This document shows, piece by piece, positions 8,975 through 55,793 of a stretch of DNA of 64,000 nt; position 1 is the first letter of the stretch; each line of letters begins with the position of its first letter. This DNA comes from a virus (lineage: Duplodnaviria > Heunggongvirae > Uroviricota > Caudoviricetes): the IMG/VR virus record IMGVR_UViG_3300002835_005179, positions 1 through 64,000 of that record; one strand, written 5' to 3'. The translations under genes and the position numbers were made by a program. The notes beneath the pieces were generated by a model. It was not told where the DNA came from and searched no databases. It was given only the letters and a program-made list of their open reading frames with translations.

Positions 8975-9612
8975 AACTATTAACAGAAGTAAATGAATTC
9001 ATAAAAATTGTTTCAGAATCTGCTGAAGGTAAACCAAAAGATTATTTTATTGAAGGTATTTTCATCCAATGCGAGAAGCCAAATAGAAATAATAGAGTAT
9101 ATAAGATGGAATATATGCAACCAGAAGTAGATCGTTATGTTGAAGAATACGTCAACAAGAATAGAGCTTTTGGTGAATTAGGTCATCCAGATAATCCTAC
9201 AATTAATCTAGATAGAGTATCGCATCTTATTACTGTTCTAGAACAAAAAGGTAATGATTATATCGGTAAAGCAAAAGTTCTAGATACACCAAACGGAAAG
9301 ATTGTTAAAGCATTTATCGATGGTGGTTGTATGTTAGGTGTTTCTACTAGAGGATTAGGTTCTCTTCAACAAGAAAAGTCTTTTTCTATGGTTCAACCAG
9401 ATTACAAAATTATGACTGCCGCAGATATTGTTGCTGATCCATCTGCGCACGAAGCATTTGTGGAAGCTGTTATGGAATCAAAAGAATGGGTTTGGAATAA
9501 TGGAATTGTGAAGGAAGTAACTATTGATTCATATAAGAAGAAGCTAACAACATCAAAAAGATTACAAGAAGATAAGATTGCCATTTTTACAGACTTTCTT
9601 TCGAGATTGTAA
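8971..9612 (+). CDS. gp21: prohead core protease
   Basis: 213 aa with GELGHPD and GVSTRGLGS motifs of the T4 gp21 (peptidase U9) family. Size and position are as in T4. Confidence 0.85.
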   Translation: MKLLTEVNEFIKIVSESAEGKPKDYFIEGIFIQCEKPNRNNRVYKMEYMQPEVDRYVEEYVNKNRAFGELGHPDNPTINLDRVSHLITVLEQKGNDYIGKAKVLDTPNGKIVKAFIDGGCMLGVSTRGLGSLQQEKSFSMVQPDYKIMTAADIVADPSAHEAFVEAVMESKEWVWNNGIVKEVTIDSYKKKLTTSKRLQEDKIAIFTDFLSRL

Positions 9613-12246: not shown

Positions 12247-13056
12247 ATGCCTAATAATATTTATTGTACATACCTTACAATCTACAAAGGTAACAAACTC
12301 CCTCTATATTATATTGGTTCAACTTCTGTTAATAGAATTAACAAAGGTTATCATGGAACCGTGTCTTCTAAGAAATATAAAGATATCTATAAACAAGAAT
12401 TAATATCTAATCCTCACCTATTCAAAACAAAAATACTTACAACACATGAAACCAGAGAAGAAGCTTATGAGAAAGAATTGTTCTTTCAAATAAAATTATC
12501 TGTAGTTAAATCACCAATGTATTTCAATGAATCATTGGCTGTGACAAATGGTTATTTTGGTCGTGCTCTAAATGGAAAAGATAATCCCCTACACGGTAAG
12601 AATCATTCAGAAGAAACAAGAAGAAAGATGTCTGAGAATAGAAAAGGAAAATATAAAGGAATTCCTAAGTCTGAAGAACATAAAAGAAAAATTGCATTGG
12701 CAAATACAGGTAAGAAACATTCTGAAGAATCTAAACGAAAAATGTCTTTAAATCATATTGGTATTGTTGCTTCTGATGAAACTAAGAAGAAATTATCTGA
12801 TATGAGAAAGGGTGAAAAGCATCCTCTTTATGGAAAGACACATTCTCCAGAATCAATTCAGAAGATGAAAGAGACGCATAGTAATCGTTCAGAAGAAACA
12901 CTAAAGAAGCTGTCTGCTGCCAAGAGTGGTGAAAATAATCCTAGTTATGGAAAGAAATGGTTCCATAATCCCATTACCTTAGAACAAATTAGGATCCATC
13001 CTAACAATCCTCCATCTGGATTCTTTCCTGGTAGAATTCCTAAAATTAATAAATAG
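12247..13056 (+). CDS. GIY-YIG homing endonuclease with NUMOD3 repeats
   Basis: N-terminus YLTIY..LPLYYIGST is a GIY-YIG motif. The C-terminal half has repeated H/E...KMS NUMOD3-like modules. Inserted directly after gp23. Confidence 0.85.
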   Translation: MPNNIYCTYLTIYKGNKLPLYYIGSTSVNRINKGYHGTVSSKKYKDIYKQELISNPHLFKTKILTTHETREEAYEKELFFQIKLSVVKSPMYFNESLAVTNGYFGRALNGKDNPLHGKNHSEETRRKMSENRKGKYKGIPKSEEHKRKIALANTGKKHSEESKRKMSLNHIGIVASDETKKKLSDMRKGEKHPLYGKTHSPESIQKMKETHSNRSEETLKKLSAAKSGENNPSYGKKWFHNPITLEQIRIHPNNPPSGFFPGRIPKINK

Positions 13057-13069
13057 ATGAGAGGAATAT

Positions 13070-13327
13070 ATGAACCTAGAAAATTTTAAAGAAGCTTATT
13101 TAACAGTTATTAATGAAGAAATTGAAGAGACCGAAGTAGTCGAAACAGAAGTAACTGATGTCGATGAAGAAACACCTGAAAACGAATTATCTGCAGCAGA
13201 TCATTTTAAGATGGGTGTTATGGCTTTGATGGGTAAGATGGATGCTTCCGAAGAAGAGAATGAAATGATCAATGATTTGGTTGCATCAATCATTTCAGAT
13301 CTTAACGATTCAATGTCTGGTGATTAA
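13070..13327 (+). CDS. small acidic protein with capsid-targeting-like N-terminus
   Basis: 85 aa. MNLENFKEAYLTVINE... is paralogous to the N-terminus of ORF 7676. Confidence 0.4.
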   Translation: MNLENFKEAYLTVINEEIEETEVVETEVTDVDEETPENELSAADHFKMGVMALMGKMDASEEENEMINDLVASIISDLNDSMSGD

Positions 13328-13938
13328 TACCATTCTACAATCTTATCGGCAATTCCATATCTTACTGCTTCTTCGGCAGAAAGCCACACATCGTGAGACG
13401 GCAAAAGAATTTCTCTTACCTTCTTTTCATTCAATCCTGTACACTTCTTATAATGAGCAAGCATTCTCTGGGTAGTTAATTCAAACTCTTTATTTCTTGC
13501 ATACAATTCATGTTCTTTTCCAAAAGAACCCCAAGAGAATTGATGTGAAAGGATAGAAGTATTCTGTGTAATATATCTCTTTCCTTTCTTTCCAGCCATG
13601 AAAATTGCAAGTCCAGCAGAAGCGATTGTCCCTAACCCAAAAGTAGAGATATCAATCTCGGATCCTTTCATAATATCAATAAGGGCAAATCCAGAACAAA
13701 GATCACCACCAACTGAATTAATCAGCATCCTGATTTCTGTTCGATCTTTTTGATCTTGGAAATTGGAATTTCTCTCAACAATATACTGAATAGCATCAGA
13801 TGTAGATTCTATGTTTATCTCGCCAGAGAGAAGATAATAACCTGCTCCCTCGAAGGAGATATACATCTGAGGAATCTCTGGCTTTGGTTTGATTTTAGAC
13901 ATTTTAGTTCTCATTTCGGTTGAGGAATCGAACTCCAA
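13324..13938 (-). CDS. clpP: ClpP-like serine protease
   Basis: INSVGG, GLGTIASAG (catalytic Ser), SHQFS (His) and a C-terminal Asp region, typical of the S14 family. Confidence 0.85.
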   Translation of the reverse strand: MEFDSSTEMRTKMSKIKPKPEIPQMYISFEGAGYYLLSGEINIESTSDAIQYIVERNSNFQDQKDRTEIRMLINSVGGDLCSGFALIDIMKGSEIDISTFGLGTIASAGLAIFMAGKKGKRYITQNTSILSHQFSWGSFGKEHELYARNKEFELTTQRMLAHYKKCTGLNEKKVREILLPSHDVWLSAEEAVRYGIADKIVEWY

Positions 13939-14076
13939 CGAAAATATTTATCAGATGAATATAAGGACTCAACAATCCTAGAAGCATCAAAGGGATTAGA
14001 GGCTTGCACCTCATAATCCCTCATCATTACGGATCTTTGTTGACCGCAATAAAATGAGCACTTGTATGTTGTCATG

Positions 14077-14868
14077 TTACTTCACATTAACTAGAGGAAC
14101 AGCATTTGTACCAAGAATCATAGTGCAATTCGATTTAGAACAAGCTTCGATTTGTAACATACGAAGATATTGATCTGGAGTTAAGCCTCTAGAATCCTGA
14201 TATGCACGATCTGCTTCAGCACGTTTAATCTCAGCCGACTTACGAGACTCTTCAGCAAGAGCTCTTTGTGTTTCAGTCTTAGATCGTTGTTGTTGAACAC
14301 CCGTTTCATTATATGCCGCAATAATTTCTTTTTGTGGAGAAATCTTACCAAGCGATACATCTAAAACTTTTACAGGAATCTTATGTTTGGTTACATATTC
14401 TTGTAATTGAATTTCTAATTCTCGTTCAACTTTCTCTACAACCTCTTGTTGTAGTGCCAATTCTGGCATTGAATATTGTCGAACTTGATTACGATTCATT
14501 GTTTGGAAAGGTCGTTGAATATTCTTCTGATAGAATTCCGGCCCAAAATTCACTACTAGAGCAACAGAATCTGTAATTTGTAGAAGAACGGAAGCATGAT
14601 AATCAATTGGATTATTATCCTTGGGCATAATATCATCAAATGGCTCGTCATATTTAATTGGCTTCTTATCTACATCATAAGAATCTGTAGATAGAGCCAC
14701 GATAACAGAACCAGGTTTAATTGGTTCCTTGTCAATACCACCATGACCAAACAACCATGGTTTATAGATTAGAACTGCTTCATGTCCAGGTTCAACATTT
14801 ACTCTCGTACAAGAAGTTCCCATTAGAACCAAACATAAACTAAATACAACTGCAATTTTCTTAATCAT
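14077..14868 (-). CDS. SPFH/band-7 (prohibitin-like) protein with signal peptide
   Basis: N-terminal signal/lipoprotein-like sequence, then an SPFH-like core and a C-terminal coiled coil (EIKRAEADRAYQ). Confidence 0.55.
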   Translation of the reverse strand: MIKKIAVVFSLCLVLMGTSCTRVNVEPGHEAVLIYKPWLFGHGGIDKEPIKPGSVIVALSTDSYDVDKKPIKYDEPFDDIMPKDNNPIDYHASVLLQITDSVALVVNFGPEFYQKNIQRPFQTMNRNQVRQYSMPELALQQEVVEKVERELEIQLQEYVTKHKIPVKVLDVSLGKISPQKEIIAAYNETGVQQQRSKTETQRALAEESRKSAEIKRAEADRAYQDSRGLTPDQYLRMLQIEACSKSNCTMILGTNAVPLVNVK

Positions 14869-33452: not shown

Positions 33453-33998
33453 ATGAGGTTTATGTCAAAAGAATACGTCAACAATCAAGAGTTACTACAA
33501 GCACTAGTTAACTATAAACAGTCTGTTGCAGAAGCCGAAAACACTGGATTACCGAAACCCAGGGTTCCTGAATATATTGGAGAATGCATTCTTAAGATTA
33601 CCGAGAATATTGCTAAAAGACCGAATTTTTCAGGTTATACATTTAGAGAAGATATGATAGGTGATGCTGTCGAAAACTGTCTATTATATCTTCATAACTT
33701 TAATGAGGAAGCTTCACAAAATGCATTTGGTTATTTCTCTAAGATTATCTGGTACGCATTCTTAAGAAGAATTGAAAAAGAATCTACAGAAACTTATGTC
33801 AAATTCAAATCTCTTGAAGCTTCTCCTTTATTCACAGATCACAAGATGGAATCTAAAAAATTCGTTAATCTTAATAAGTCTGTTCTGAATGAAAACACAA
33901 TTCATATCATTGAAAAATATGAAGAAAAGATATTGAGAAGAAAGAAGATAAAGGTTCTCGATGAGAGTCTAACTAAATTAGAGGAGTTTATGGAATAA
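33453..33998 (+). CDS. gp55: late-transcription sigma factor
   Basis: YVNNQELLQAL, NFSGYT and LHNF match T4 gp55. 181 aa. Followed by 47 and 46 as in T4. Confidence 0.8.
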   Translation: MRFMSKEYVNNQELLQALVNYKQSVAEAENTGLPKPRVPEYIGECILKITENIAKRPNFSGYTFREDMIGDAVENCLLYLHNFNEEASQNAFGYFSKIIWYAFLRRIEKESTETYVKFKSLEASPLFTDHKMESKKFVNLNKSVLNENTIHIIEKYEEKILRRKKIKVLDESLTKLEEFME

Positions 33999-35056
33999 TG
34001 TTTGTAGCTCTTATCACCGACACACATTTCGGTATCAAAAATGATTCTCCTCTATTCTATGAATATTTCGATTTATTCTTAGATAATGTCTTCTTTCCGA
34101 CCATAGAACAAAAAGGAATAGACAAGATAATTCACTTGGGAGATTGTTTTGATAGAAGGAAATATGTAAATTTCAATACTCTAACATGGGCTAGATCTTC
34201 TTTCTTTGATAGAATTCAGGATATAGCCACAATGGATATTATCATTGGGAATCATGATACATATTTTAAGAATACGAATGATGTCAATTCTCCCAATCTA
34301 TTGCTTAGTGATTATGATAATATTCGCATATTTGATGATGTGTATGAAGAAGACAATTTAATATACGTTCCTTGGATTACAGAAGATAAAAAGAAAGACG
34401 TATTAGAAAAGATTTCGAAATCTTCTGCTAACATTCTTCTTGGTCATCTTGAAGTAAAAGGATATACTATGTTCAAGGGCGCAATCTGCGATCATGGTTT
34501 GTCTTCTGATATTTTCTACAATTATGATCTAGTTCTTTCAGGACATTTTCATTCTAAGAACGATTCGTCAAATATCTATTATCTTGGATGTCCTTGGGAT
34601 TTGATGTTTAATGACGTCGATGATGTTAAAGGTTTCCATATCTTAGATACAGAAACAGCTGAATTGACTTTCATTGAGAACCCATATAAATTATTTAATA
34701 AATTATATTATGATGATTCTTCTGCAAAGAAGGTTCAAGATGTTCTTTATTCTGATAAAAAATACAATTCATTAACAAAGACTTTCATTAAAGTTTATAT
34801 TAAAGCTAAAACAAACCCAGTATTTTTCGATAGATTTTGTGATCGATTAACAGAATCGAATCCTTATTCTGTAGTTTATGCTGAACAATATCTAGACATT
34901 GAAGATTCAGAAGAAGTCGCTTCACTATCAGAAGATACTCTTTCTCTTCTAAAATCTTCTATCGAAGATTATGTAGATTTAATACCTGATGATAGTAAAA
35001 TGCGAGAATTAGAAACATTATTATCAGATTTATATACCGAGGCAATAAAATCATGA
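33998..35056 (+). CDS. gp47: recombination endonuclease subunit (Mre11/SbcD-like)
   Basis: Metallophosphatase motifs DTHFG, GDCFD and GNHD. 352 aa. Confidence 0.8.
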   Translation: MFVALITDTHFGIKNDSPLFYEYFDLFLDNVFFPTIEQKGIDKIIHLGDCFDRRKYVNFNTLTWARSSFFDRIQDIATMDIIIGNHDTYFKNTNDVNSPNLLLSDYDNIRIFDDVYEEDNLIYVPWITEDKKKDVLEKISKSSANILLGHLEVKGYTMFKGAICDHGLSSDIFYNYDLVLSGHFHSKNDSSNIYYLGCPWDLMFNDVDDVKGFHILDTETAELTFIENPYKLFNKLYYDDSSAKKVQDVLYSDKKYNSLTKTFIKVYIKAKTNPVFFDRFCDRLTESNPYSVVYAEQYLDIEDSEEVASLSEDTLSLLKSSIEDYVDLIPDDSKMRELETLLSDLYTEAIKS

Positions 35057-36774
35057 TTATATTTGAAAAAATGAAATATAAAAATATTCTTTCAACCGGA
35101 AATAAATTTAATGAAATAATATTCAATGGTGTGAAAACAAATCTCTGCATCGGAAAAAATGGTGAAGGAAAATCAACTTTTCTTGACGCATTAACTTTCG
35201 TTCTATACGGTAAACCTTTCAGAAAAATCAACAAACCACAACTAATTAATTCTACAAATAACTCAGATTTACTTGTTGAAATTAACTTTAAAATCAATAA
35301 AGATTCATACCTAATACGTCGTGGTATGAAACCAAATATTTTCGAAATCTTTACAAATAACAAGTTAATAGATCAGAATGCAATCTCAAGAGATTATCAA
35401 GAATTACTGGAAAATCATATCTTGAAGATGAATTATAAAACATTCACTCAGATTGTCGTTATTGGAAACGCAACTTACATGCCATTTATGAAGTTGAATC
35501 CAGTAGATAGAAGAAATATCGTTGAAAATCTTTTGGATATTGATATCTTCTCTAAGATGAATTCTCTTCTTAAAACAAAAGTGTCTAAGACAAAAGAAGA
35601 AATAAATGGAACTTCTTATAAACTAGATCTATCTAAAGAAAAGATGAAGATACATAAGAATCTAATTTCGAATTCAACATCAGATATTGACAAATCAATC
35701 ACAGATATCGATGCTGAAATGAGACGAAATGAATTGCAAGTAATTGCAAAAGAATTGGCTATAGATAAATTGAATAAAGAGATTCAAGAGATCATTGTTA
35801 ATGATTCAAAAATCAGTACCCTTACTTCTAAGATATCCAATCTTACACATTATTCTGTAACTTTTAAAGAAAAGATGAAGAATCTGTCGAAAGAAATTAA
35901 ATTCTTCAATACAAATGATTCTTGTCCAACTTGTACACAATCTATTCCAGAAGAATTTAAATCAACTACATTATCATCTAAAGAAAAAGAATTAACCAAA
36001 TATAATGATGCCATATCGTCCTGTAATTCTGAGATTAATAGTATATCTATCGAGATAGAAGAAATTAACAAAAATATAGAAGAGATTAAAGAAAGAAAGA
36101 CAGAAATAACAAAGAGACAATTTGAAATTGATTCTATTACACAATATATCGGTAAGTTATCAAAACAGATTAATGATTTAAGAGTTAAGAAGATTGAAGA
36201 TGTAAAGAAGATCGAAGAAGAAAAGACAATCTTAGAACAGGAATTGGAAACTCTGAATGAAGAACGTGATACTCTTCTAAATCAACAACACCTACAATCC
36301 ATTGCAGCAATTCTTTTGAAAGATGATGGAATCAAAACGAAAATTATTCGTCATTATCTTCCAGTAATGAATAAGATTATCAACAAGTATCTACAATTAA
36401 TGGACTTCTATGTCAACTTTTCACTTGATGAAAACTTCGATGAAGTCATCAAGAATAAATCAAAAGAGAATTTTACTTATCATTCCTTCTCTGAAGGCGA
36501 GAAATTAAGAATCGATCTTGCTATCCTTTTTACTTGGAGAGAAATTTCAAAGATGAAGAATGCTGCAAATACTAATTTGTTGATTCTTGATGAAATTCTT
36601 GATTCATCATTGGATGCTCTGGGTATTGATGATTTCTTGAAAATCTTATCTTCTAGTAAAGAACAAACTAATACCTTTGTTATTTCGCATAGAAGTGATG
36701 GAATTCAAGATAAATTTGAGAGAATCTATAGATTCTCTAAGGTAAATGGTTTCACTAAGATATCTATAGATTAA
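35053..36774 (+). CDS. gp46: recombination endonuclease ATPase subunit (Rad50/SbcC-like)
   Basis: Walker A GKNGEGKST, long coiled coil with a CPTC zinc hook, and C-terminal signature/Walker B LLILDE. Confidence 0.85.
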   Translation: MIIFEKMKYKNILSTGNKFNEIIFNGVKTNLCIGKNGEGKSTFLDALTFVLYGKPFRKINKPQLINSTNNSDLLVEINFKINKDSYLIRRGMKPNIFEIFTNNKLIDQNAISRDYQELLENHILKMNYKTFTQIVVIGNATYMPFMKLNPVDRRNIVENLLDIDIFSKMNSLLKTKVSKTKEEINGTSYKLDLSKEKMKIHKNLISNSTSDIDKSITDIDAEMRRNELQVIAKELAIDKLNKEIQEIIVNDSKISTLTSKISNLTHYSVTFKEKMKNLSKEIKFFNTNDSCPTCTQSIPEEFKSTTLSSKEKELTKYNDAISSCNSEINSISIEIEEINKNIEEIKERKTEITKRQFEIDSITQYIGKLSKQINDLRVKKIEDVKKIEEEKTILEQELETLNEERDTLLNQQHLQSIAAILLKDDGIKTKIIRHYLPVMNKIINKYLQLMDFYVNFSLDENFDEVIKNKSKENFTYHSFSEGEKLRIDLAILFTWREISKMKNAANTNLLILDEILDSSLDALGIDDFLKILSSSKEQTNTFVISHRSDGIQDKFERIYRFSKVNGFTKISID

Positions 36775-37793
36775 ATATTCATAGATATATTATATTTTTT
36801 CATTTTGTTGGTTTTGGTTTTTTCGAAGAGTAAATCTTCCTGATCTTCTACTATCTTTATAAGAACAACATCTCCGGATTGTAATCGTTCGTCAGAAAGA
36901 ACGCAAGATAACGGGATTTCAATTTTGCTAGAAATAACTCTCTTCAAATTTCTTGCACCATATTCTTCGGAAAAACCTTTTTCTATCAACCAGTCTTTTG
37001 TCTTATCTTCCATAACAAAAAAGATTTTCTTTAGATTCATCTTAGACGATAATATTCTATATTGGATATCAGATAACTGTAGTTCCAGAATCTTTTTCAT
37101 ATGTTCTGGTGTTAATGTTTCGAATTTAATTGTCACATCAATTCTATTCAAGAATTCTGGTCTAAATTTTGATCTCATCGATTTATCTAGTAGAGACAAT
37201 TCTTCTTCTTCGTCGACCTCTTTGTTAACAAATCCTATCGTTTTAGATCTTTGCACATACTCCTCAACACCAATATTTGATGTGAATATAATGAAACAAT
37301 TTCTGAAATTCACAGAATCATTATTTCCCAATCTAATTTCTCCCTTATCTAATATAGAAAGAAGTAGATTAAATAGAGAATCTGTAGCTTTCTCAATCTC
37401 ATCGAATAGAATGACATTCGGAACAACTCCTTCTACATCTTTTTTGTTGAAGAATGCTTTGGTTTCCGAGTGTCCTATATAACCAGGAGGAGCTCCAATT
37501 AATTTGGCAAGCTCATGAGATTGTTGATACTCACCACAATTTACTTTAAGAAACCTATCAACACCAAAAAACTTAGCCAATTCTTCTGCTACTTTCGTTT
37601 TCCCGCAACCAGTTTTACCAGCAAAGAAGAAAGAAGATATAGGTCGAGTTGGATCAGATAAACCATTATAGAACTTTTGTGTAGATATCGCCAATTCTCT
37701 TATGGCTTTTTCTTGACCAACAACAACATTATTCAATTTATCTTCTAATTCTTTTGCTGGTCCAGACAGATTTCTAGAGTTTAAGATCATCAT
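36771..37793 (-). CDS. ClpA/ClpB D2-type AAA+ unfoldase (single AAA module) with IGF ClpP-docking loop
   Basis: VVGQEKAIRELAIST...FFFAGKTGCGKT (Walker A), NVILFDEIEKA...SVNFRNCFIIFTSNIG (Walker B/sensor 1), then KTIGFVNKE in the position of the ClpA IGL loop. Confidence 0.8.
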   Translation of the reverse strand: MMILNSRNLSGPAKELEDKLNNVVVGQEKAIRELAISTQKFYNGLSDPTRPISSFFFAGKTGCGKTKVAEELAKFFGVDRFLKVNCGEYQQSHELAKLIGAPPGYIGHSETKAFFNKKDVEGVVPNVILFDEIEKATDSLFNLLLSILDKGEIRLGNNDSVNFRNCFIIFTSNIGVEEYVQRSKTIGFVNKEVDEEEELSLLDKSMRSKFRPEFLNRIDVTIKFETLTPEHMKKILELQLSDIQYRILSSKMNLKKIFFVMEDKTKDWLIEKGFSEEYGARNLKRVISSKIEIPLSCVLSDERLQSGDVVLIKIVEDQEDLLFEKTKTNKMKKYNISMNI

Positions 37794-37829
37794 GATCCTC
37801 CTGAAACTATTTATTGGTATATGTGAAAA

Positions 37830-38140
37830 TGCCGCCTTCTGTTTCCAGGTGGCGGCGAACCCAGTCTTATGCTGTTTAAGCAGCAGCAGACATTACTAAT
37901 ACGTTAGTATTTGCGTTTATAGTTTACGCTGTTATGGTAGTCGTCTACCAGAAATCTACTCTCATCTATTCCTGCCAATCGATACTGATTCAGGCCCACC
38001 AAAGTATACTCTTTGTCAATATCCCCGCAGATATCATACGTTTGGTGTAGGACTCAACTTCATAGGTCGAGCGAGTATACTTTGGTGGACCTGCTGGGTT
38101 CCGCCCCCAGGTCTTGCACAGTTGTTGAATCGGATCAACG
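37830..38140 (-). ncRNA. GC-rich structured non-coding island (candidate ncRNA, minus strand)
   Basis: About 300 nt at roughly 50% GC in a 30%-GC genome, with no ORF. It contains long complementary segments (GGCCCACCAAAGTATACTC ... GAGTATACTTTGGTGGACC; GCCGCC..GGCGGC). Read on the minus strand it ends in a GC hairpin followed by ATTTTC. Confidence 0.3.
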
Positions 38141-38449
38141 ATTTCAATTTTTATTTATTAGTCTTCCTCTCACCAATCCAAAAGATTCAGTCTCAAATAT
38201 CAAATAATTATTTGTGCCATCATTATACCAATGTCTTGTGTTTCCCAAACCATCTCTTCTGCCGTTTCACTGAAAATGCCCATAGTCTTTTCTAATTCCT
38301 CAATAGCAATATTCTTATTTGTAATTCTATTTTTGGTAGAAAACGAATCTATAACAAGACCCGTTGTTAAATGTATTAACCTGACACCAGCTGGATTCTC
38401 ATTCAATTTTTGATCTGGTGTCAGGAAATATTCAAATGTACACTGTGTG

Positions 38450-38923
38450 TTAATCGTGTGAATATTCATCCACATCAATTTGACCATTACGATATACATT
38501 AATCTCTGCATGATCACCAAACATTTGACGAAGATCTTCATCTTCAAACATAGATAGAAGTTCGTCTACTTCATTATATGCCTTCTTTATTGAATCGATC
38601 GAATCGAAAGAAAGATCTTCAAGATCAATCTCTTTACTATATTGTTCGTTATTCAAAGTCCAGTTATCAACATGATCACAAGAGTTATTGAATCTATAAT
38701 AATCTCGATTAACACCAAATACACAAGTGTCACCATCATTGAAATAAGGTGTATATTGATTCCAAGAAAATGAATTCAATTGTGGATTGTCATTGAAGAT
38801 ATCTTTTGTGATATCACCAAATACACTCTTTGCGTTATCTCGTAACATCTTCATATGTTCGTCACGAATTACCTTAAATTCATTAATCTTTGCAATAAAT
38901 TCATTCTTAGTCATATTAATCAA
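38450..38923 (-). CDS. hypothetical protein
   Basis: 157-aa ORF. Confidence 0.45.
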   Translation of the reverse strand: MINMTKNEFIAKINEFKVIRDEHMKMLRDNAKSVFGDITKDIFNDNPQLNSFSWNQYTPYFNDGDTCVFGVNRDYYRFNNSCDHVDNWTLNNEQYSKEIDLEDLSFDSIDSIKKAYNEVDELLSMFEDEDLRQMFGDHAEINVYRNGQIDVDEYSHD

Positions 38924-42154: not shown

Positions 42155-43208
42155 GCTTCGTCTGTCAAGCGAATATGGTGTGTATTCTAAACAACACAAT
42201 CAATATCCAAATCTGTACCAATTCACTTATGATCAGATTGAATCTTCGAAGATCAAAGATCATCCGATCGTGCGAGAATCTCGTGGTATTATCCTGGATC
42301 GTGATGCCTCTTGGTCGGTAGTTGCTCGTCCTTTCGATCGATTCTTTAATTGGGGCGAGAATGTCACTGAAGTTAACTTTGATTGGTCTTCCTTTGTAGC
42401 ACAAGAAAAGATTGACGGATCATTAATGATCCTATACAATTATCTTGGTAAATGGAATGTTGCCACCAAAGGTTCTCCTGATGCGAATGGTACTATCGGT
42501 GATAATTCGTTCACATTCGCTGAGTTATTCTGGGAAACCTTCAAACAACAAATGTATTCTGTTTCTGATCTAGATCCTAGAAATACATATATGTTTGAAT
42601 TGACTTCAAAGTATAATCGTGTAGTTACTTCTCAGTTGAATAACGAAGGCAAGTTAACTCTAATTGGTGTTCGTGATAATAATACTGGTCAAGAGTTTCC
42701 AGTTTCTTTGTACAAAGATATCTTCGATGTGGTTCGATCATATGATATGAATACTATCGATGAGATCTTAATTGCAGCAAAAGAACTCGATCCTTCTAAA
42801 CAAGAAGGCTTCGTTCTAGTTGATAAGAACTATAATAGAATCAAAGTTAAGTCAGAGAAGTATGTTTTGATTCATCATCTGAATTCTGGTAACGTTCGCC
42901 GCAGCTTACTAAATCTTTGGAAATCAGGAGATTCGGAAGAGCTATTATCATATCATACGGAATTTCGAAATGAATTTAATAATTTAGATGCGTCTATTCA
43001 TTTATTATGCCAAGAAATAGACAATGGATGGTCGATGACAAAACACATCATTGATAGGAAAGAATTTGCTTTAACTGTTAATCAATACTACAAACATATT
43101 TCATCTGCCCTTTTTATGAAAAAAGATAATAAATTGAAAAATACAATAGATTATTTTAAAAATATGGATATTAAAAAATTAGAAAAAATATTAGACTTTG
43201 TTATCTGA
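42111..43208 (+). CDS. RNA ligase (Rnl1-like, KxDG nucleotidyltransferase)
   Basis: Motif I EKIDGSLM. Size of 365 aa. Co-occurs with polynucleotide kinase (pseT) in the window. Confidence 0.55.
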   Translation: MLELQKFLNTNFGDRLRLSSEYGVYSKQHNQYPNLYQFTYDQIESSKIKDHPIVRESRGIILDRDASWSVVARPFDRFFNWGENVTEVNFDWSSFVAQEKIDGSLMILYNYLGKWNVATKGSPDANGTIGDNSFTFAELFWETFKQQMYSVSDLDPRNTYMFELTSKYNRVVTSQLNNEGKLTLIGVRDNNTGQEFPVSLYKDIFDVVRSYDMNTIDEILIAAKELDPSKQEGFVLVDKNYNRIKVKSEKYVLIHHLNSGNVRRSLLNLWKSGDSEELLSYHTEFRNEFNNLDASIHLLCQEIDNGWSMTKHIIDRKEFALTVNQYYKHISSALFMKKDNKLKNTIDYFKNMDIKKLEKILDFVI

Positions 43209-44012
43209 AATACGAGAAAGACGATTATTTTTTCTAGTTTCTACCATTTGAGATTTTTGTTTCAAACTAATAATTCGTCCTGGAATAAGTAAATGATTTG
43301 TATCGTCGATATGTTCTAGATCCTTTACTTTAATAAATATATTTTTTGTCCCATCATTATACCACTTCCCTCCCTTATTATTTTTCTTATTTTTATTTTC
43401 TATCAAAGAGGCGGACCGTTTTTTCTTCGTTTCTTCAGATTGTTTTTTATTAAAAGAAGGATTTTTAGAACCCAATTTAGATTCAGACATATTTTTTTTC
43501 TGTTTATCGGTTCTTTTTTGTCCGACGACATATGTATTGCCCAATTTAGATAAACCCATTTTCTTACGGTGAATTTCAGATTTTCTTTTACCTAGTAGTG
43601 CAGCAGATATTTCGGCTTTGGTTTCTGGAGTGTGGTTCTTTCCATACCTAGGAGACTTTTCTCCAGTTTTTCCATACATAGGAGACTTTTCTCCAGACCT
43701 TTTGTCTAGTGCTTCCGGAGTGTATTTATAACCAGACACCCCTTCCCCGCCATCGGTCTTATTTCTCAGGATTCCTGTTCCTAGATCTTTTCGACCATAA
43801 AACTGTATTAGTCTTATTTCTTCGTCGAAGGCTTCTGATTCTGACAGATTTTCGAAGAGAATAGATATTCTAGAAGATTCAACAGGACGAAATCGTCTCT
43901 TACACCAGGCTCTGTTACCCTGACCTTTTCCAATATAATATGGAGTCCCATCTTCTCTTAGAAAAGCATAGACATAGAATCTGGCTGGGTCTTTATAAAT
44001 AGTTTTAGACAT
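43191..44012 (-). CDS. GIY-YIG homing endonuclease with NUMOD3 repeats
   Basis: FYVYAFL..GTPYYIGKGQGNRAW GIY-YIG motif and repeated GEKSPxYGK/NHTPETK NUMOD3-like modules. Start reset to the ATG preceded by GGGAGG. Confidence 0.8.
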   Translation of the reverse strand: MSKTIYKDPARFYVYAFLREDGTPYYIGKGQGNRAWCKRRFRPVESSRISILFENLSESEAFDEEIRLIQFYGRKDLGTGILRNKTDGGEGVSGYKYTPEALDKRSGEKSPMYGKTGEKSPRYGKNHTPETKAEISAALLGKRKSEIHRKKMGLSKLGNTYVVGQKRTDKQKKNMSESKLGSKNPSFNKKQSEETKKKRSASLIENKNKKNNKGGKWYNDGTKNIFIKVKDLEHIDDTNHLLIPGRIISLKQKSQMVETRKNNRLSRISDNKV

Positions 44013-45062: not shown

Positions 45063-46463
45063 TTAGAATTTGAAATTATCGAAGTTCTTCTTATATTTCG
45101 AAGAACCATATCCTGAATCAAATTCACCATAATTATTATCCTGATAAGGATCTTGAATACCACCTTCTCCATCAATCTGAATATCACCGATATCAAATAA
45201 TCTCATCTTAGATCTATCAATACCAACCAAGAATTTCTTATTCTTAGTCACATCATTATATCTATTCTTCAACTGTTTAATCATCAACTGACCAAGTTTT
45301 TCTAATTCTTCTGTATTAATTAGAGCAATCATGAAATCGCAAGTGGCGGCGACGCCGAAACTTTCTGCAATATCACCCATACCAGCATCAGAATCAGACG
45401 CTCCAGATCTCGTAAATTGTGATGCGGATACGATCGGAAGATTAGCTTCTACAGCAAGACCACGAACTTCTTCAGCAATAGACTTAACCAACATATAAGA
45501 ATTTACTTGACCGTTATTCTTAATTCTTGAAGAAGCACAAATATTCAAATAATCAATATAGATAATATCTGGAATAAACTTCTTCTTTAGAGCAAGTTCA
45601 TGTAGAAGATATCTGAAGTGTGATACGTTGGCTGAACCAGTTGGATATTCCTTGATAACCAACTTGCCTGGTGTTCGACTTTCTAACTTATTAATTAGTG
45701 ATAAGAATTGTTTCTTAGAAATTTGTTTTAGAGTATCTAAGGTAATATCCAATAGATTCGCATCAATTCTCTCGGCGATTCTTTCTTCAGCCATTTCACA
45801 TGTAATATACAAAACATTCTTACCATCAAGAACATTAGAAGCTGCCATATGACACATCGCCAAAGTTTTTCCAGCATTAACACCACCAAGAATTAAGTTT
45901 AGCGTTTTTCTCGGAAGTCCTCCACCAGTAATAAGATTTAAATTCTGGATATCAAAACGAATTCTCTCTTCTTTCTTATGATAAAATTCAAATCTTGTTT
46001 CTGCATCAGAAACAAAATCATGACCAACTGATGGATCGAATGTAATTGCAAGAGCTTCTTTAAGAATTTCAGGAATAGAACCTTTATCTCTAGTATCTTT
46101 TTCATCAGATATAATCTTAATAGAATCTAAGATTGCATTATGCAATGATTTTTCTTTACAAAATGATTCAGTCTGTTTGATCAAGAATTTTAAATCAGTT
46201 TGCTCATTCTTCGACCAAGAATCTAATAGATTAGATATTACTTCTGAGTCTTCAATTTTAATCTTCTTAGATTCAGAAGTCATAATCTTAATAGCTTCTA
46301 CGGAAGCTTGTTTATTATATTCTGTGACAAACGAATTAATGAATTTAAATATACTTCTATCATTATGATCCGAAAAATATTCAGACTTTAGAAAGGGTAA
46401 TACTGATCTAGTATATTCTTCGTTATGTAAGAGATTCTTTAAAACCAAATGTTCAATTTTCAT
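45063..46463 (-). CDS. gp41: replicative DNA helicase (DnaB-like)
   Basis: Walker A GGVNAGKT and the DnaB-family C-terminal domain. Start reset to ATG at 46463 (GGAGAAAACTAATTATG), because the upstream 48 codons of the track ORF lie in the repeat locus. Confidence 0.85.
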   Translation of the reverse strand: MKIEHLVLKNLLHNEEYTRSVLPFLKSEYFSDHNDRSIFKFINSFVTEYNKQASVEAIKIMTSESKKIKIEDSEVISNLLDSWSKNEQTDLKFLIKQTESFCKEKSLHNAILDSIKIISDEKDTRDKGSIPEILKEALAITFDPSVGHDFVSDAETRFEFYHKKEERIRFDIQNLNLITGGGLPRKTLNLILGGVNAGKTLAMCHMAASNVLDGKNVLYITCEMAEERIAERIDANLLDITLDTLKQISKKQFLSLINKLESRTPGKLVIKEYPTGSANVSHFRYLLHELALKKKFIPDIIYIDYLNICASSRIKNNGQVNSYMLVKSIAEEVRGLAVEANLPIVSASQFTRSGASDSDAGMGDIAESFGVAATCDFMIALINTEELEKLGQLMIKQLKNRYNDVTKNKKFLVGIDRSKMRLFDIGDIQIDGEGGIQDPYQDNNYGEFDSGYGSSKYKKNFDNFKF

Positions 46464-46896
46464 AATTAGTTTTCTCCTGTGATAACGACCAAGAATTAGA
46501 GTCTGAACCTGAGCCTGAAGAAGATAAATTTGCAGACCAAGATTCTGATTTGGGTATCTCTCCGGACCAAGACCAGGATCCCGATCTGCGTGAATTTCCA
46601 ATTCCACTCCATGATCCAGAAAATAAACGAGTCCAATATATATATTCTGATTTCTTTCTTAATTTGTGAATCATAAATTGGATGTCCCGGATTTAGAACC
46701 ATATCGATATCTACTGTCGGTAATCCATGATAGATAATGATTAGATTGGCCAGACTTAGAAGATAAGAAGATACTCGAAGAGGTTCCGCATCTATGGAGA
46801 CCGGAGAAGAACCTCTTCTTGGAATTAAATCTCAATCTAATAGATTTTCTTTTTGTTGTTAACATATTTCCATTTATCTTGAATAATCTAGAATAA

Positions 46897-47064
46897 TTAA
46901 TTTCCAGACCTAGACCAAGACCTAGACCTAGACCTAGACCAAGACTCAGACCTAGACTCAGACCTAGACCAAGACCCAGACCTAGACCTAGACCTAGACC
47001 AAGACCAAGACCAAGACCCAGACCTAGACCAAATAATTCTTTTGTAAATTGATTTCTTTATCAT
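46897..47064 (-). CDS. micro-gene B1: MIKKSIYKRIIW + (X-Ser)n
   Basis: Header ATG at 47064, open Ser-X frame, ends SGN-TAA. Confidence 0.45.
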   Translation of the reverse strand: MIKKSIYKRIIWSRSGSWSWSWSRSRSRSGSWSRSESRSESWSRSRSRSWSRSGN

Positions 47065-47068
47065 ATTT

Positions 47069-47275
47069 TTAGTTAGACCTAGACCCAGACCTAGACCTAG
47101 ACCAAGACTCAGACCTAGACCCAGACCAAGACCAAGACCCAGACCCAGACCAAGACCTAGACCTAGACCCAGACCAAGACCCAGACCCAGACCCAGACCC
47201 AGACCAAGACCAAGACCCAGACTCAGACCTAGACCTAGACCCAATATTTTTTTTGTAAATTGATTTCTTTATCAT
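47069..47275 (-). CDS. micro-gene B2: MIKKSIYKKNIG + (X-Ser)n
   Basis: 68-aa ORF from the track with the same header. Confidence 0.45.
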   Translation of the reverse strand: MIKKSIYKKNIGSRSRSESGSWSWSGSGSGSGSWSGSRSRSWSGSGSWSWSGSRSESWSRSRSGSRSN

Positions 47276-52607: not shown

Positions 52608-55600
52608 TTAAAAATTTAGTCTTAGACTTAACTGTAGTTGTCTTGAAGTTCCTAGACCAACAGTTTTATCAAGTGTTGATTGTATCGTTCCAAATACAGC
52701 TCCCTTTGTTACATCATTGTAAGATTGACCGGGTTGTAGTGTATTAGACTGACCAATTCTGGATGGAATTGCATTTGGTAATTGTGCTGGAGGATTTGTA
52801 AAATTTACATTATTAAAGATGTTATATAATTCTGTTCTGAAAATTAAATTGTATTTGTCTTTAGCATAAATCTTTTTCTGAAGAGTTAGATCTGCTTGGA
52901 AAAGCATTGGACCTCTCAACGAGTATCTAGAAGCGTTTCCAAAATATCCAGGCAACGGAACTGAGAAAGCAGCAGGATTCAAGAAAATTGTTTTATCAGT
53001 ATTTTTGATATATGACGAAACTCCTAATACATAATCAGGTCTGCGGATTTGTCTTGTTTGTCCACCACCAGGAACATTAATAACAGCTACAGAATTAGAC
53101 CCTACAGAACTATTATAGTACAATCCAGATGATTTGTCAAGAAAGATTATGTCGTTTCTTACGATTAATGGATCAAGAGGAAGACCTGATCTGGTATTGA
53201 TAACAGAACCAATCTGCCACGTTTTCCATTCATACAATCCAACAATATTTAAATTGTGACGAATATCCGCTGCATTATTACCATAATCGGTTCTCCAATT
53301 GAAAGGATTTGCAACAGTTACAGTTTCATTTGAACCACCAGATGAACCGATTGATCTTCCCCATGTATATGATACACCATAAATTAGGCCGCTCTTCGTT
53401 TTTCTGTTTAGAGTTGCCTGTAAAGCATTATAATGATCATTACCACCTGATGTTTTTACATCAACTTCAGCAAATCTATCACCAAATTGTCTCTTTACAG
53501 TTCCAGTAGGAGTTACATCTGTGATTAGATTTCCAAGTGTTCTAATGAACAAATTTCTACCAAGAGAACCAACATACGCAACAGTTAAAACATTATCTTT
53601 AATTTGTTGTTGAACTGATGCTGTATATGAATAAACAGTTTCCGGAATATTATAACCCGAAGAATAAGCTCTTGGTTGAAAACGAAGATTTGGGTCATTG
53701 ATATTGTAAGAAGCAATAATAGAAGTTGGATTAATCGGATAAGTTGTATTAGTTAGAGTCTTACTAACACGATCAGATTCAAATGGTTGGATAAGATCTT
53801 CTGGTTGTCCTGGTCCAAAATAAACACCAGTTCCTACACGAAATACAGTCTTACCATTTAGAGAATTTGGACTCCATGTTCCAGATAATCTTGGCGAAAA
53901 ATTATCTTTATTTGAACGATAGACAGGAAGATTATTTGGTAAAATGTTTCCTGTTTCTGGTGACCAATTAACTAATAGATTTCTCTTTTCCTTGAAAACT
54001 GAATAGAATTCATATCTAATTCCATAATTAACAGTAAAGTTAGAAGATGCTTTCCATTCATCTTGTATATAACCAATTAAATAATTCTGAGTAATTTCTC
54101 TTTCTCCAGTTGCTCTATTATTAAATGGAGAAGGTGCAGAAAGATCACCCAAGAATTGTATTTGAAGTGGTCGATTATTAATTAGATCTTCTACGTTTGA
54201 GAAACTATAAGTTGTTCCACCAAGACGATCTGTAAATAAACGGATAAATCTTAATTCTCCACCAAACTTAAAATTATGAGAAGAATTAATCCATGAAAAA
54301 TTATCAATCAAAGTAATTGAAGTATTAGTATAAGGTTGTCCACGACCATTTGTAGCAGAATTTGATCTTACTAGACCACCAGCAGTAGCAAATCCTGTGC
54401 TTGAACCTTGTGTTGTAATACCAGATAAAGCAACGCCACCAGTTAGATTAATTGAAATATCTGCTGGATTAAAGTTATTTACAATTGGTGCAGTTCCCCA
54501 TGCTCTTGTTTTATAAGCATTTAATCCAATCTTGGTTTCATTAATCTTCTGTGGTGTGATAATCCATTGAACATTTGCTACAGCATTTTGTGGAACCGCA
54601 GTAACATCAATAGAATTTCCAGTAACACCTAGTGGTTGAATTGACTTACCACTATCTCTGAAGTAACGGAAATATCCAGAAAGATTATCTGAAATTTTTG
54701 AATCTAATCTTAGACCAAACGAATTTTCATCTACAGTCTGTTTTCTATCAATAGCAACAATAGAAGCATTCGGATCTGTTGTTGGAATATTTCCAACTGG
54801 ATAAAGTGCTAGAAGATTTCTAACTTGTGGAACTGCTCTTGCTTTTGCTGTTTCTGATGGAACAGCTTCTCTAAACGGAACCGATTGTCTCTGTCTTAGA
54901 CCTTCATATGATGCAAACCAAAAAGTCTTATCTTGCTTTACTGGACCACCAACAGAGCCACCAAATTGATTTAGACGTAAAGGATTCTTAGCAGCATCAA
55001 AGAAATTTCTAGAATCTAATACATTATTTCTAAGATATTCAAAAACACCACCATGAATCTTATTACCACCAGACTTAGTTACAATTGTGATTTGACCACC
55101 AGTTCCTGTACCATATTCTGCTGGATAATTATTAGATTCAACACGAAATTCTTGAACATTTTCCATTGAAGATTGTAATCTAAAGAATGAAGAAATCTGC
55201 CCATTTAGATTACCCGGAGAAGCATCAATAATAGAAGATCCTTCAATTCCATCATATTTAATAGCATTTTGTTGATTAGATCTACCACTAAACTTAATAT
55301 TATCAAATGTACCACCGCCAGCAGTTGAAGCACCAGGAGCTAATAGATATAACTGTGAAATTTGTCTACCATTTAGCGGAAGATTTGAAACTTCTCTTTC
55401 AGAAACATTAACACCAATCTTCGCTGAAGATGTATCGATAGTCGTAACTTCACCACCTTCAACAATAATTTCAGTCTTAATAATTTGAGGTACTAAGATG
55501 AAATTGATACCAATAGATTCATTAACCAATAATTTAATTCCTGTTTTCTGTGTATTTGCAAAACCGGGAGCAGAAGCTTTTACATTATAAGATGAAGCAG

Positions 55601-55793
55601 GTAGATTTGTGATAATGTATTCACCAACTTCATTTGTTACCACTTCTCTTACAGATCCAGTTTTTTCATTCTGAATCTTAACAGTTGCACCAATAATTAC
55701 TTCTTCATTCTTGTCAAAAATCTTTCCTCTAATCGAAGCTTCTTGACAAAATAAGCTAGTCGTTAATAAAAATAAACTTAATAAATATTTCAT
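52608..55793 (-). CDS. TonB-dependent outer-membrane receptor with N-terminal carboxypeptidase-regulatory-like domain
   Basis: Signal peptide, then a CarbopepD_reg-like beta-sandwich (IRGKIFDKNEEVIIGATVKI...), a plug and a long beta-barrel ending in the terminal aromatic residue (...LRLNF). Phage-like AT-rich composition. Confidence 0.75.
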   Translation of the reverse strand: MKYLLSLFLLTTSLFCQEASIRGKIFDKNEEVIIGATVKIQNEKTGSVREVVTNEVGEYIITNLPASSYNVKASAPGFANTQKTGIKLLVNESIGINFILVPQIIKTEIIVEGGEVTTIDTSSAKIGVNVSEREVSNLPLNGRQISQLYLLAPGASTAGGGTFDNIKFSGRSNQQNAIKYDGIEGSSIIDASPGNLNGQISSFFRLQSSMENVQEFRVESNNYPAEYGTGTGGQITIVTKSGGNKIHGGVFEYLRNNVLDSRNFFDAAKNPLRLNQFGGSVGGPVKQDKTFWFASYEGLRQRQSVPFREAVPSETAKARAVPQVRNLLALYPVGNIPTTDPNASIVAIDRKQTVDENSFGLRLDSKISDNLSGYFRYFRDSGKSIQPLGVTGNSIDVTAVPQNAVANVQWIITPQKINETKIGLNAYKTRAWGTAPIVNNFNPADISINLTGGVALSGITTQGSSTGFATAGGLVRSNSATNGRGQPYTNTSITLIDNFSWINSSHNFKFGGELRFIRLFTDRLGGTTYSFSNVEDLINNRPLQIQFLGDLSAPSPFNNRATGEREITQNYLIGYIQDEWKASSNFTVNYGIRYEFYSVFKEKRNLLVNWSPETGNILPNNLPVYRSNKDNFSPRLSGTWSPNSLNGKTVFRVGTGVYFGPGQPEDLIQPFESDRVSKTLTNTTYPINPTSIIASYNINDPNLRFQPRAYSSGYNIPETVYSYTASVQQQIKDNVLTVAYVGSLGRNLFIRTLGNLITDVTPTGTVKRQFGDRFAEVDVKTSGGNDHYNALQATLNRKTKSGLIYGVSYTWGRSIGSSGGSNETVTVANPFNWRTDYGNNAADIRHNLNIVGLYEWKTWQIGSVINTRSGLPLDPLIVRNDIIFLDKSSGLYYNSSVGSNSVAVINVPGGGQTRQIRRPDYVLGVSSYIKNTDKTIFLNPAAFSVPLPGYFGNASRYSLRGPMLFQADLTLQKKIYAKDKYNLIFRTELYNIFNNVNFTNPPAQLPNAIPSRIGQSNTLQPGQSYNDVTKGAVFGTIQSTLDKTVGLGTSRQLQLSLRLNF

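Follow-up and report, generated by a model that had tools for sequence, protein, structure and literature searches.

A single-ring Clp ATPase next to a two-piece tmRNA gene in a T4-like phage: a possible unfoldase for trans-translation products

To our knowledge, all the well-studied bacterial partners of ClpP are either ClpX or the two-ring ATPases ClpA, ClpC and ClpE, with N-terminal domains. The window analysed here, a stretch of 64,000 nucleotides of phage DNA, encodes a Clp ATPase reduced to one ring and, at a distance, a ClpP homolog (Table 1), which raises the question of what such a motor is for and which peptidase, if any, it serves. So far, only metagenomes have yielded this phage. 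None of 50,697 phage records was matched by 20 kb of the window in a megablast search, and an identical ATPase is present in freshwater assemblies. When bacterial genomes were searched with the ATPase alignment, the best matches reached ~40% identity and belonged mostly to Acidobacteriota, with no pointer to the host or to the origin of the gene.

Table 1. Location of the features of the ATPase locus and of related genes in the window
Feature	Coordinates	Strand	Residues, basis or remark
T4 gp21-type prohead protease	8971-9612		head module; phrog_207, 1.8e-75
Divergent ClpP-family (S14) serine peptidase, 196 aa	13324..13914	-	Pfam, family alignment, AF2 model
Triad Asp175	13390-13392		
Triad His124	13543-13545		
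Triad Ser99	13618-13620		
gp55 late sigma factor	33453-33998		
Single-ring Clp/Hsp100 D2-type AAA+ ATPase, 340 aa	36771..37793	-	Pfam, structure-relative matches, alignments, AF2 model
IGF docking tripeptide (by alignment)	37230-37238	-	residues 186-188
Walker B DE	37398-37403	-	residues 131-132
Pore loop GAPPGYIGH	37470-37496	-	residues 100-108
Walker A GKTGCGKT	37596-37619	-	residues 59-66
Sensor-1, Arg finger, sensor-2			N173, R217, R281
Late-promoter-like motif AATAAATA	37808..37815	-	T4 late consensus TATAAATA; ~10 nt upstream of the ATPase AGGAGG ribosome-binding site
Two-piece (circularly permuted) tmRNA gene	37828..38207	-	Rfam covariance models
tmRNA tag frame	37876..37914	-	GCA AAU ACU AAC GUA UUA GUA AUG UCU GCU GCU GCU UAA, ANTNVLVMSAAA and stop
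Start of tmRNA coding piece, GGGCCUG	37997-37991		
CCA end of tmRNA acceptor piece	38085-38083		
Late-promoter-like motif AATAAATA	38152..38159	-	just upstream of the tmRNA
Small ORF, weak similarity to RF-1/ArfB-like release-factor catalytic domain	38200..38475	-	Pfam RF-1 7.7e-6, below gathering score

On the evidence of its sequence, the ATPase is confirmed as a stand-alone D2 module of the ClpA/ClpC type with all its catalytic motifs intact. Both Pfam domains of the Clp/Hsp100 D2 module were found above their gathering scores, AAA_2 with 127.6 bits (6e-37; gathering score 27) and ClpB_D2-small with 62.9 bits (3e-17; gathering score 21.9). The nearest solved structures are the D2 halves of ClpC, ClpB and ClpA (E 1e-58 to 1e-47, over residues 14-320), and the alignment covers only residues 500-792 of ClpC and 449-745 of ClpA. 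Walker A and B, the pore-loop Tyr, sensor-1, the Arg finger and sensor-2 are invariant in alignments of 20 family members and 75 wider homologs. The AF2 model (pLDDT 87.7) has as its top structural matches ClpC chains from ClpC/ClpP complexes (TM 0.81). With the D2 of ClpC and ClpA the phage protein shares ~32-40% identity in the large and small subdomains, the same GAPPGY(I/V)G pore loop, Arg finger and sensor-2, and a hydrophobic-G-F/L tripeptide in the same loop. Unlike those proteins, it is devoid of N-domain, D1 and middle domain, with 340 aa against 758-818 aa.

The protein belongs to none of the established full-length classes. It does not have the N-domain, D1 and D2 in one chain of the ClpA/ClpC class I, and its NCBIfam ClpA score of 238 bits is far under the curated cut-off of 993. 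It is of a different AAA+ subfamily from ClpX, without the ClpX-type module or the zinc-binding N-domain; the NCBIfam ClpX score is 50 bits against a cut-off of 359, the match being limited to residues 13-78, the first ~65 residues. Finally, it differs from ClpB/Hsp104 in having one ring, no M-domain and IGF where ClpB has GEL. A search of all 64 kb detected no D1 module, N-domain or further Clp ATPase. The possibility that the gene is split, or that a separate gene supplies D1, was rejected, as the window contains no D1-like match and the length of 335-345 aa is kept in ~22 clusters.

The ClpP-binding Clp ATPases (ClpA, ClpC, ClpE and ClpX) carry the tripeptide (L/I/V/A)-G-(F/L) at the tip of the P-loop (PMC8745299, PMC12521514), and mutation of the AGF motif of S. 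aureus ClpC leads to the loss of ClpP binding (PMC12521514). The IGF of the phage ATPase conforms to this tripeptide and aligns column for column with that AGF (residues 671-673), as well as with the IGL of E. coli ClpA (residues 617-619). F188 is invariant among the 20 family members within an otherwise variable loop, and hydrophobic-G-[F/L/Y] is also found at the docking position of ~70 other viral single-D2 ATPases. These alignments suggest that the ATPase docks on a ClpP ring through its IGF loops. A previous sequence-only reading of this DNA had described a 340-aa ATPase colinear with the D2 of ClpA/ClpB, without N-domain and D1, and with IGF at the place of the docking IGL of ClpA; all of this has been borne out, and the motifs that it quoted were all found where it had placed them.

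Immediately upstream of the ATPase, and on the same strand, lies a two-piece tmRNA gene, which that reading had overlooked. Two Rfam models, RF04321 (99.9 bits, gathering 47) and RF01849 (92.9 bits, gathering 50), match it over their full length, and ARAGORN missed it when run on the window. Besides the covariance matches, the gene exhibits the CCA end, the start of the coding piece (GGGCCUG), which pairs with the acceptor 3' strand CAGGUCC to give the G3-U wobble of alanine charging, and a short tag frame of 12 codons with an Ala codon first and a stop last. No SmpB homolog was found in the window, and the tmRNA would use that of the host. When 185,579 bacterial species genomes were searched for the tag with a degenerate pattern, there were 0 matches, and no host is indicated.

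The same order, with the two-piece tmRNA directly upstream of the ATPase on the same strand, was found in the window and in the loci L002-L006, L010-L013, L083-L088, L097-L100 and L112, which span 39-100% ATPase identity; it is kept in nearly all the T4-like relatives, whose loci were examined over 10 kb. An exception is L008/L009, where the tmRNA lies 5 kb from the ATPase and on the other strand. The many loci are not independent events, because gene order is inherited among related phages. In the wider phage group it is the ClpP homolog that has a tmRNA 1-2.7 kb upstream on the same strand (34 of the 120 further viral loci listed), with a gap of 87 nt in L077; this was counted as a juxtaposition independent of that with the ATPase. 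The tags of the two groups differ. Those of the ATPase-adjoining tmRNAs never end in LAA, their ends being SAAA, MSA, ASA, ARG, YAA, MAA and FAA (the frames in L083, L084 and L088 were picked by ORF length and are less certain), whereas, of 31 ARAGORN calls next to ClpP, 30 have a tag with ALAA at its end.

Regarding expression, the motif [AC]TAAATA stands before the ATPase at the same place in 12/12 relatives' loci despite diverged surroundings, and [ACT]TAAATA starts 11-15 nt ahead of the tmRNA model start in 12/12 loci of the ATPase clade. The phage also encodes the late sigma factor gp55, and both motifs would act as promoters, with late timing. A scan of the locus for sigma-70 promoters and intrinsic terminators gave no excess over chance. 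A late promoter kept before the ClpP gene was likewise considered and is unsupported, the motif being present in 18/66 loci and lying inside conserved coding sequence in the close relatives. Furthermore, the small ORF beyond the tmRNA, in which P-D-Q replaces the GGQ of the release-factor domain, is matched in relatives by three divergent homologs, which occupy the corresponding position and each score ~1e-6. It can tentatively be assigned to the tmRNA-ATPase module.

The ClpP homolog scores 110.9 bits with Pfam CLP_protease (8.5e-32; gathering score 20.2), and the catalytic Ser, His and Asp do not vary across 44 members of the family. The AF2 model (pLDDT 90.1) is matched by solved ClpPs at TM 0.80-0.83 and places the handle at helix 134-159; as modelled, the protein shows the complete ClpP fold, including the handle helix on which a two-ring barrel depends. 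Fold, triad and handle are those of MEROPS family S14. The sequence-only reading had given an ORF of 13324-13938 with an intact triad; the triad has been confirmed, and translation more probably begins at the ATG at 13914 than at the TTG at 13938, because the former makes an ATGA overlap with the stop of an upstream 54-aa ORF and a 100%-identical database protein has 196 aa. That reading also assigned head maturation to a separate T4-type gp21 protease, which was indeed found, and named as a threat to its proposal that ClpP might be a prohead protease. This was ruled out: the gp21-type enzyme holds that place in the head module, the ClpP gene lies in an auxiliary block on the opposite strand, and the NCBIfam Clp_rel_HeadMat score is 70.7 bits against a cut-off of 120. 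None of the matches of the ATPase, the ClpP homolog and the gp21-type protease can be due to chance. An SPFH (Band-7) gene adjoins the ClpP gene, which brought an NfeD/stomatin-like pair to mind; the idea was dropped, as this adjacency occurs in the closest relatives only and the protease is ClpP-like.

The aromatic docking patch of E. coli ClpP is formed by Y74, Y76 and F96 (PMC4416901). In all 44 members of the phage family these positions hold R/T/K, L/I/V and G, respectively. The N-terminal 25 residues are modelled with low confidence and without helix A, unlike the canonical hairpin plus helix A, and every NCBIfam ClpP equivalog score is under its cut-off. Because the three aromatic residues of the pocket are lost and the N-terminus is unlike the canonical one, the phage protein is not a canonical ATPase-docking ClpP, and docking of the phage ATPase on it is doubtful. 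A precedent is ClpP1 of M. tuberculosis, the ring that does not bind ATPases, which is likewise a ClpP competent for catalysis whose aromatic patch is incomplete (PMC4416901); unlike it, the phage protein has lost all three aromatics and has no known partner ring.

The sequence-only reading had proposed to check the co-occurrence of both genes in relatives, and the outcome is divided. On the positive side, they share a contig in the window and in two IMG/VR contigs, ~21-23 kb apart, and probably in three more cases, to judge by longest contigs of identical length, and they are found together in every checkable long contig of the close clade. On the negative side, ClpP is far more widespread: the complete genome of phage BUCT-ZZ01 carries the ClpP homolog and a tmRNA without any Clp ATPase, and the ClpP family exceeds the ATPase family in diversity by a factor of at least five. 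Therefore, the ATPase is an accessory, not an obligate partner, of ClpP.

The explanation preferred here, with a probability of roughly 0.45, is a late-expressed single-ring unfoldase module coupled to trans-translation through the phage tmRNA. The conserved tmRNA just upstream is the strongest functional clue; it points to the degradation of trans-translation products instead of the regulatory or host-takeover role presumed from the sequence alone. The ATPase would descend from the second ring, D2, of Hsp100 proteins of the ClpA/ClpC type and would have arrived at the design of ClpX, the classical degrader of tmRNA-tagged proteins, namely one AAA+ ring with IGF loops for feeding ClpP, without an N-terminal substrate or adaptor domain. 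As a putative hexamer, it would engage substrates directly by its GYIG pore loops and thread them into the ClpP barrel on which it is docked. Late in infection, the alanine-charged phage tmRNA and host SmpB would rescue stalled ribosomes and append ANTNVLVMSAAA; the unfoldase would recognise the chains so tagged and have them degraded, with the recycling of ribosomes and amino acids. All this suggests that incomplete proteins are tagged and destroyed by machinery that the phage itself supplies. The chains may be cut by the divergent phage ClpP, by that of the host or by a particle mixed from both, a choice left wide because the pocket is lost, the ClpP family is wider spread and BUCT-ZZ01 does without the ATPase.

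A bolder form of this coupling, considered rather unlikely, is an orthogonal tag-and-destroy system, in which a drifted, non-ALAA tag would be poorly handled by host ClpXP and the unfoldase without N-domain would have co-evolved to recognise it, providing private control, late in infection, over what becomes of rescued translation products. In this form, the GGQ-less protein encoded beyond the tmRNA may control ribosome rescue at one more level. As for phage tmRNAs elsewhere, the pelagimyophages and the OM43 phage Melnitz are also T4-like aquatic phages with an alphaproteobacterial-type permuted tmRNA (PMC9004378). In Melnitz it is described as lying downstream of an early promoter and a glutamine riboswitch, and upstream of gp33, whereas here a late-type motif precedes it and the Clp ATPase gene comes next; the Melnitz paper makes no mention of a Clp or protease gene (PMC9004378).

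The first of the rival explanations, to which a minor share of the probability is given, is that the ATPase docks on host ClpP only, in competition with the ClpX and ClpA of the host, and diverts that peptidase to its own use, and that the phage ClpP works apart from it, for instance by serving host ATPases, by forming rings together with host ClpP or simply as a peptidase. A canonical IGF in the ATPase facing a phage ClpP without a canonical pocket is what would then be expected, and so is a ClpP without ATPase in BUCT-ZZ01; the constant company of both genes in the long contigs of the close clade argues against it. This explanation fits the tmRNA-coupled one, the partner being the sole difference.

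The original proposal, an autonomous minimal Clp protease made of the phage ATPase and the phage ClpP, acting on host or phage regulators and unrelated to tmRNA, is unlikely. The IGF at the docking position, the complete and potentially barrel-forming ClpP, the linkage of both genes and the existence of a separate prohead protease are all in its favour. Yet the pair as such is not supported, given the loss of the docking patch throughout the phage ClpP family, the much wider spread of ClpP and its occurrence alone in BUCT-ZZ01; moreover, the proposal offers no explanation for the conserved placement of the tmRNA beside the ATPase and, in other phages, beside ClpP, and an adaptor or N-domain able to select regulators is absent. 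Jumbo phages such as G, Phosso and Atu_ph07 also possess Clp components of their own, annotated as ClpXP or as a full-length Clp ATPase plus ClpP, and the ClpP of Phosso is 45% identical to that of the window and of the same family. Unlike here, their ATPases are ClpX or full two-ring proteins (778 aa in Phosso), in genomes of ~470-500 kb, and we know of no described link of these components to tmRNA.

Finally, the ATPase might need no peptidase and act by itself as an unfoldase or disaggregase which remodels aggregates, assembly intermediates or stalled ribosomes late in infection, its IGF being a relic. Single D2-type rings can indeed work in this way, and human CLPB/Skd3, which like isolated ClpB NBD2 has a single D2-type nucleotide-binding domain as its entire motor, is among the matches of the phage protein (1e-33; TM ~0.8 with ClpB NBD2 constructs). 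The sequence scores with the D2 of ClpB are as high as those with ClpC or ClpA, and the non-canonical pocket of the phage ClpP and the 23 kb between the genes are also compatible with this idea. Skd3, unlike the phage ATPase, has ankyrin repeats, lacks the hydrophobic-G-F loop and is peptidase-free. The invariance of F188 and the maintenance of hydrophobic-G-F/L in ~70 independent viral single-D2 ATPases, when ClpB is without it, make this reading improbable, because a relic would not persist so widely.

A D2 ring that occurs naturally by itself and bears a docking loop would be the smallest partner of ClpP derived from Hsp100, and D2 would be shown to be sufficient for substrate selection and threading. 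The non-canonical tags found with the ATPase, as opposed to the ALAA tags found without it, provide a natural experiment on degron-unfoldase specificity, and the two types of tag are possible parts for orthogonal protein-degradation tools. The role of phage-encoded tmRNAs is still speculative (PMC9004378), and the conserved pairing with an ATPase gives them a concrete, testable function. It suggests that abundant aquatic T4-like phages handle ribosome rescue and amino-acid recycling themselves.

The window, with 34% G+C, belongs to a T4-like myovirus; its features are collected in the table. Megablast of 20 kb of it against 50,697 phage records revealed no cultured phage close at the DNA level; freshwater metagenome contigs carry proteins identical to its ATPase. 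The 1061-aa ORF has a signal-peptide-like N-terminus, and the tandem small ORFs, present at two sites in opposite orientation, start with MIKKSIYKRNIG and continue with long SG, SW and SR dipeptide runs.

Features of the window, with strand where assigned
Feature	Position	Remark
Terminase	1893-3482	
Sheath and portal genes		identified
gp21-type prohead protease	8971-9612	phrog_207, 1.8e-75
Scaffold gene		identified
Major capsid protein	10845-12104	
NUMOD3 gene, homing-endonuclease-like	12247-13056 (+)	separates capsid gene from ClpP block
ClpP-like ORF	13324-13914 (-)	start most likely 13914
SPFH/Band-7 lipoprotein-like gene, 54-aa ORF	13911-14868 (-)	SPFH: Pfam 1.8e-19
Tandem small ORFs	20422-21083 (+)	
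tRNA, anticodon CUA	24146-24220 (+)	Rfam tRNA, 64 bits
rIIA		identified
gp55 late sigma factor	33453-33998	
gp47/gp46	33998-36774	
Clp ATPase	36771-37793 (-)	340 aa
Two-piece tmRNA	37828-38207 (-)	
Release-factor-like ORF	38200-38475 (-)	
Candidate second homing-endonuclease-like ORF	43191-44012 (-)	273 aa
Tandem small ORFs	46453-47275 (-)	
1061-aa ORF	52608-55793 (-)	flanked by DNA polymerase region and small ORFs
DnaB-like helicase, UvsX, DNA polymerase		identified

The ATPase contains the Pfam domains AAA_2 and ClpB_D2-small and nothing else, and in a search of solved relatives its matches were confined to the D2 halves of ClpC (1e-58), ClpB and ClpA. The full set of active-motor motifs is present and unchanged in alignments of 20 family members and 75 wider homologs. 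Since a length of 335-345 aa is kept across about 22 database clusters (42-100% identity), and the 64-kb window was searched for a D1, an N-domain or another Clp ATPase and holds none, the single-ring architecture proposed by the sequence-only reading is real and a gene fragment is ruled out. The IGF which that reading had placed at the ClpP-docking position (residues 186-188) indeed shares alignment columns with AGF 671-673 of S. aureus ClpC and IGL 617-619 of E. coli ClpA, ClpB holding GEL there; F188 is invariant in the 20 family members, within a variable loop. The S. aureus tripeptide enters a ClpP pocket, and its mutation abolishes ClpP binding (PMC12521514). AF2 predicts the structure with confidence (pLDDT 87.7), the lower values at the pore and IGF loops being expected for flexible elements, and the model is matched best by ClpC chains out of ClpC/ClpP complexes. 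The ATPase is a minimal unfoldase, probably coupled to ClpP.

Most ORFs among the best 80 viral relatives are likewise single D2 modules (309-450 aa), and nearly all of these relatives retain hydrophobic-G-[F/L/Y] in the docking loop, so that one-ring ClpA/C-D2-type ATPases form a class widespread among large phages. In public annotation they are recorded merely as ClpA, ClpB or ClpC subunits, and a literature search found no description of one-ring D2-type phage ATPases or their tmRNA link; the ClpXP of phage G is known from annotation only.

The ATPase is preceded, on its own strand, by about 400 bases that encode a two-piece (circularly permuted) tmRNA, scoring 99.9 bits with RF04321 and 92.9 bits with RF01849 (Rfam). 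The acceptor piece, as read from the sequence, terminates in CCA, the coding-piece 5' end GGGCCUG base-pairs with the 3' strand of the acceptor to give the G3-U pair required for alanine charging, and the tag frame is ANTNVLVMSAAA, then stop. A two-piece tmRNA has been described in phage Melnitz, with Clp genes unmentioned (PMC9004378). ARAGORN missed the permuted tmRNAs of the window and several relatives, which both Rfam models detected; surveys based on ARAGORN alone undercount this class. Directly upstream of the tmRNA lies a small ORF with weak likeness to the class-I release-factor/ArfB catalytic domain, all Pfam scores of such ORFs being below the gathering score. In the window GGQ is replaced by P-D-Q, and across the window and its relatives by P-D-Q, S-R-Q or P-R-Q; divergent copies occupy the equivalent position in the viral contig loci L013 (7025-7444; 139 aa, ArfB-length), L010 (7578-7775) and L002 (7692-7892), and that of the window is C-terminally truncated.

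The gene order is DUF6915, orf154, (RF-1-like ORF), tmRNA, ATPase and then convergent gp46. Among T4-like relatives with sufficient flanking sequence, this order is kept over 39-100% ATPase identity (L002-L006, L010-L013, L083-L088, L097-L100, L112) in all but L008/L009, where the tmRNA lies 5 kb off on the opposite strand. A T4-late-promoter-like [ACT]TAAATA stands 11-15 nt ahead of the tmRNA, and a similar TAAATA motif immediately ahead of the ATPase ribosome-binding site, each in 12/12 loci; given this conservation, the T4 consensus and the presence of gp55, both are probably late genes. The locus is also a hot spot for mobile insertions. In relatives (L013 7580-8239, L011 8291-9403), a weak HNH-like ORF (E 0.0015, below the Pfam gathering score) is inserted beside the tmRNA, and a DUF559/MTES_1575 gene adjoins or splits gp46. 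Elsewhere in the window, the candidate second homing-endonuclease-like ORF resembles the NUMOD3 gene in length and N-terminal sequence.

The ClpP was correctly credited with an intact triad: Ser99, His124 and Asp175 are invariant in the family, and the predicted structure shows the complete fold, handle helix included. Nor is it the prohead protease, a separate gp21-type gene being present. Directly upstream of ClpP come the SPFH gene and the 54-aa ORF. The stop of the latter overlaps the ClpP start as ATGA, a sign of possible translational coupling; only the closest relatives, L014-L016, retain the SPFH gene there. Besides the window, two IMG/VR contigs carry both ATPase and ClpP, about 21-23 kb apart, and three further co-occurrences are inferred because the longest contigs of both proteins have matching lengths.

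The ClpP family is much bigger than that of the ATPase, with at least 120 loci in a motif scan of viral contigs and over 120 clusters sharing at least 55% identity in a protein search. Of the 120 loci listed, 34 carry a two-piece tmRNA upstream of ClpP, at a distance of 1-2.7 kb and in the same orientation; the interval contains a SleB-like cell-wall hydrolase along with small ORFs, and no ATPase. In L077 the gap is just 87 nt. A conserved cluster in other, uncultured viral contigs (L186 472-2419, L212 4358-6287, L191 2070-5329 and about 30 similar loci) runs on one strand from a two-piece tmRNA through the genes for a small secreted peptide rich in Lys and Pro, for a 91-aa protein (MSNMTPFEIRLELLKMAK...) and for the hydrolase to ClpP. 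Thus, at least three differing arrangements unite tmRNA with Clp components, which is the chief argument for a functional link.

The sequence-only view of the phage ATPase and phage ClpP as a pair is unproven and partly contradicted. The positions of the aromatic docking residues Y74, Y76 and F96 of E. coli ClpP are R/T/K, L/I/V and G in 44/44 aligned phage family members, and their N-terminal region shows no canonical hairpin or helix A; in M. tuberculosis ClpP2, mutating the corresponding patch abolished chaperone-dependent degradation (PMC4416901). The canonical IGF loop would suit a canonical pocket, such as that of host ClpP, no less well than the phage one. Moreover, BUCT-ZZ01, a cultured Synechococcus phage (Kyanoviridae) whose genome is complete, encodes a same-family ClpP (51% identical) alongside a two-piece tmRNA with the tag ANDETFSMALAA; nothing in that genome matches the window ATPase or any of E. 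coli ClpX, ClpA and ClpB. ClpP with tmRNA is thus the more general pair, to which one sub-lineage has added the ATPase. In BUCT-ZZ01 a tRNA(CUA) also lies near the tmRNA; that of the window is of amber-suppressor type and labelled tRNA-Pyl by ARAGORN.

The tags differ as well. Those of ATPase-adjacent tmRNAs are ANTNVLVMSAAA, ANTNVLAMSAAA, VNTNVMAMSAAA, GNAKAMSMSA, ANNNVAYAYAA, ADTKVFAMAA, NVNTMSMAFAA and, in less certain frames, AKSNKMKSFAASA and AKAKAKTMSARG, none of which ends in LAA; ANDxx[YF]ALAA-type tags occur in 30/31 ARAGORN calls of ClpP-adjacent tmRNAs, at most of which loci the absence of the ATPase is established only locally. A degenerate search of 185,579 genomes found the window pattern in 0 bacterial species genomes. 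Since the determinant for ClpX in E. coli is LAA at the C-terminus, this split, taken without regard to phylogeny, is compatible with the idea that the phage ATPase recognises a degron specific to the phage.

Instead of the generic regulatory role first presumed, in a reading which overlooked the conserved upstream tmRNA, the likely role is degradation tied to phage trans-translation. Clp proteases and phage tmRNAs are known kinds; their association here is testable and fairly surprising.
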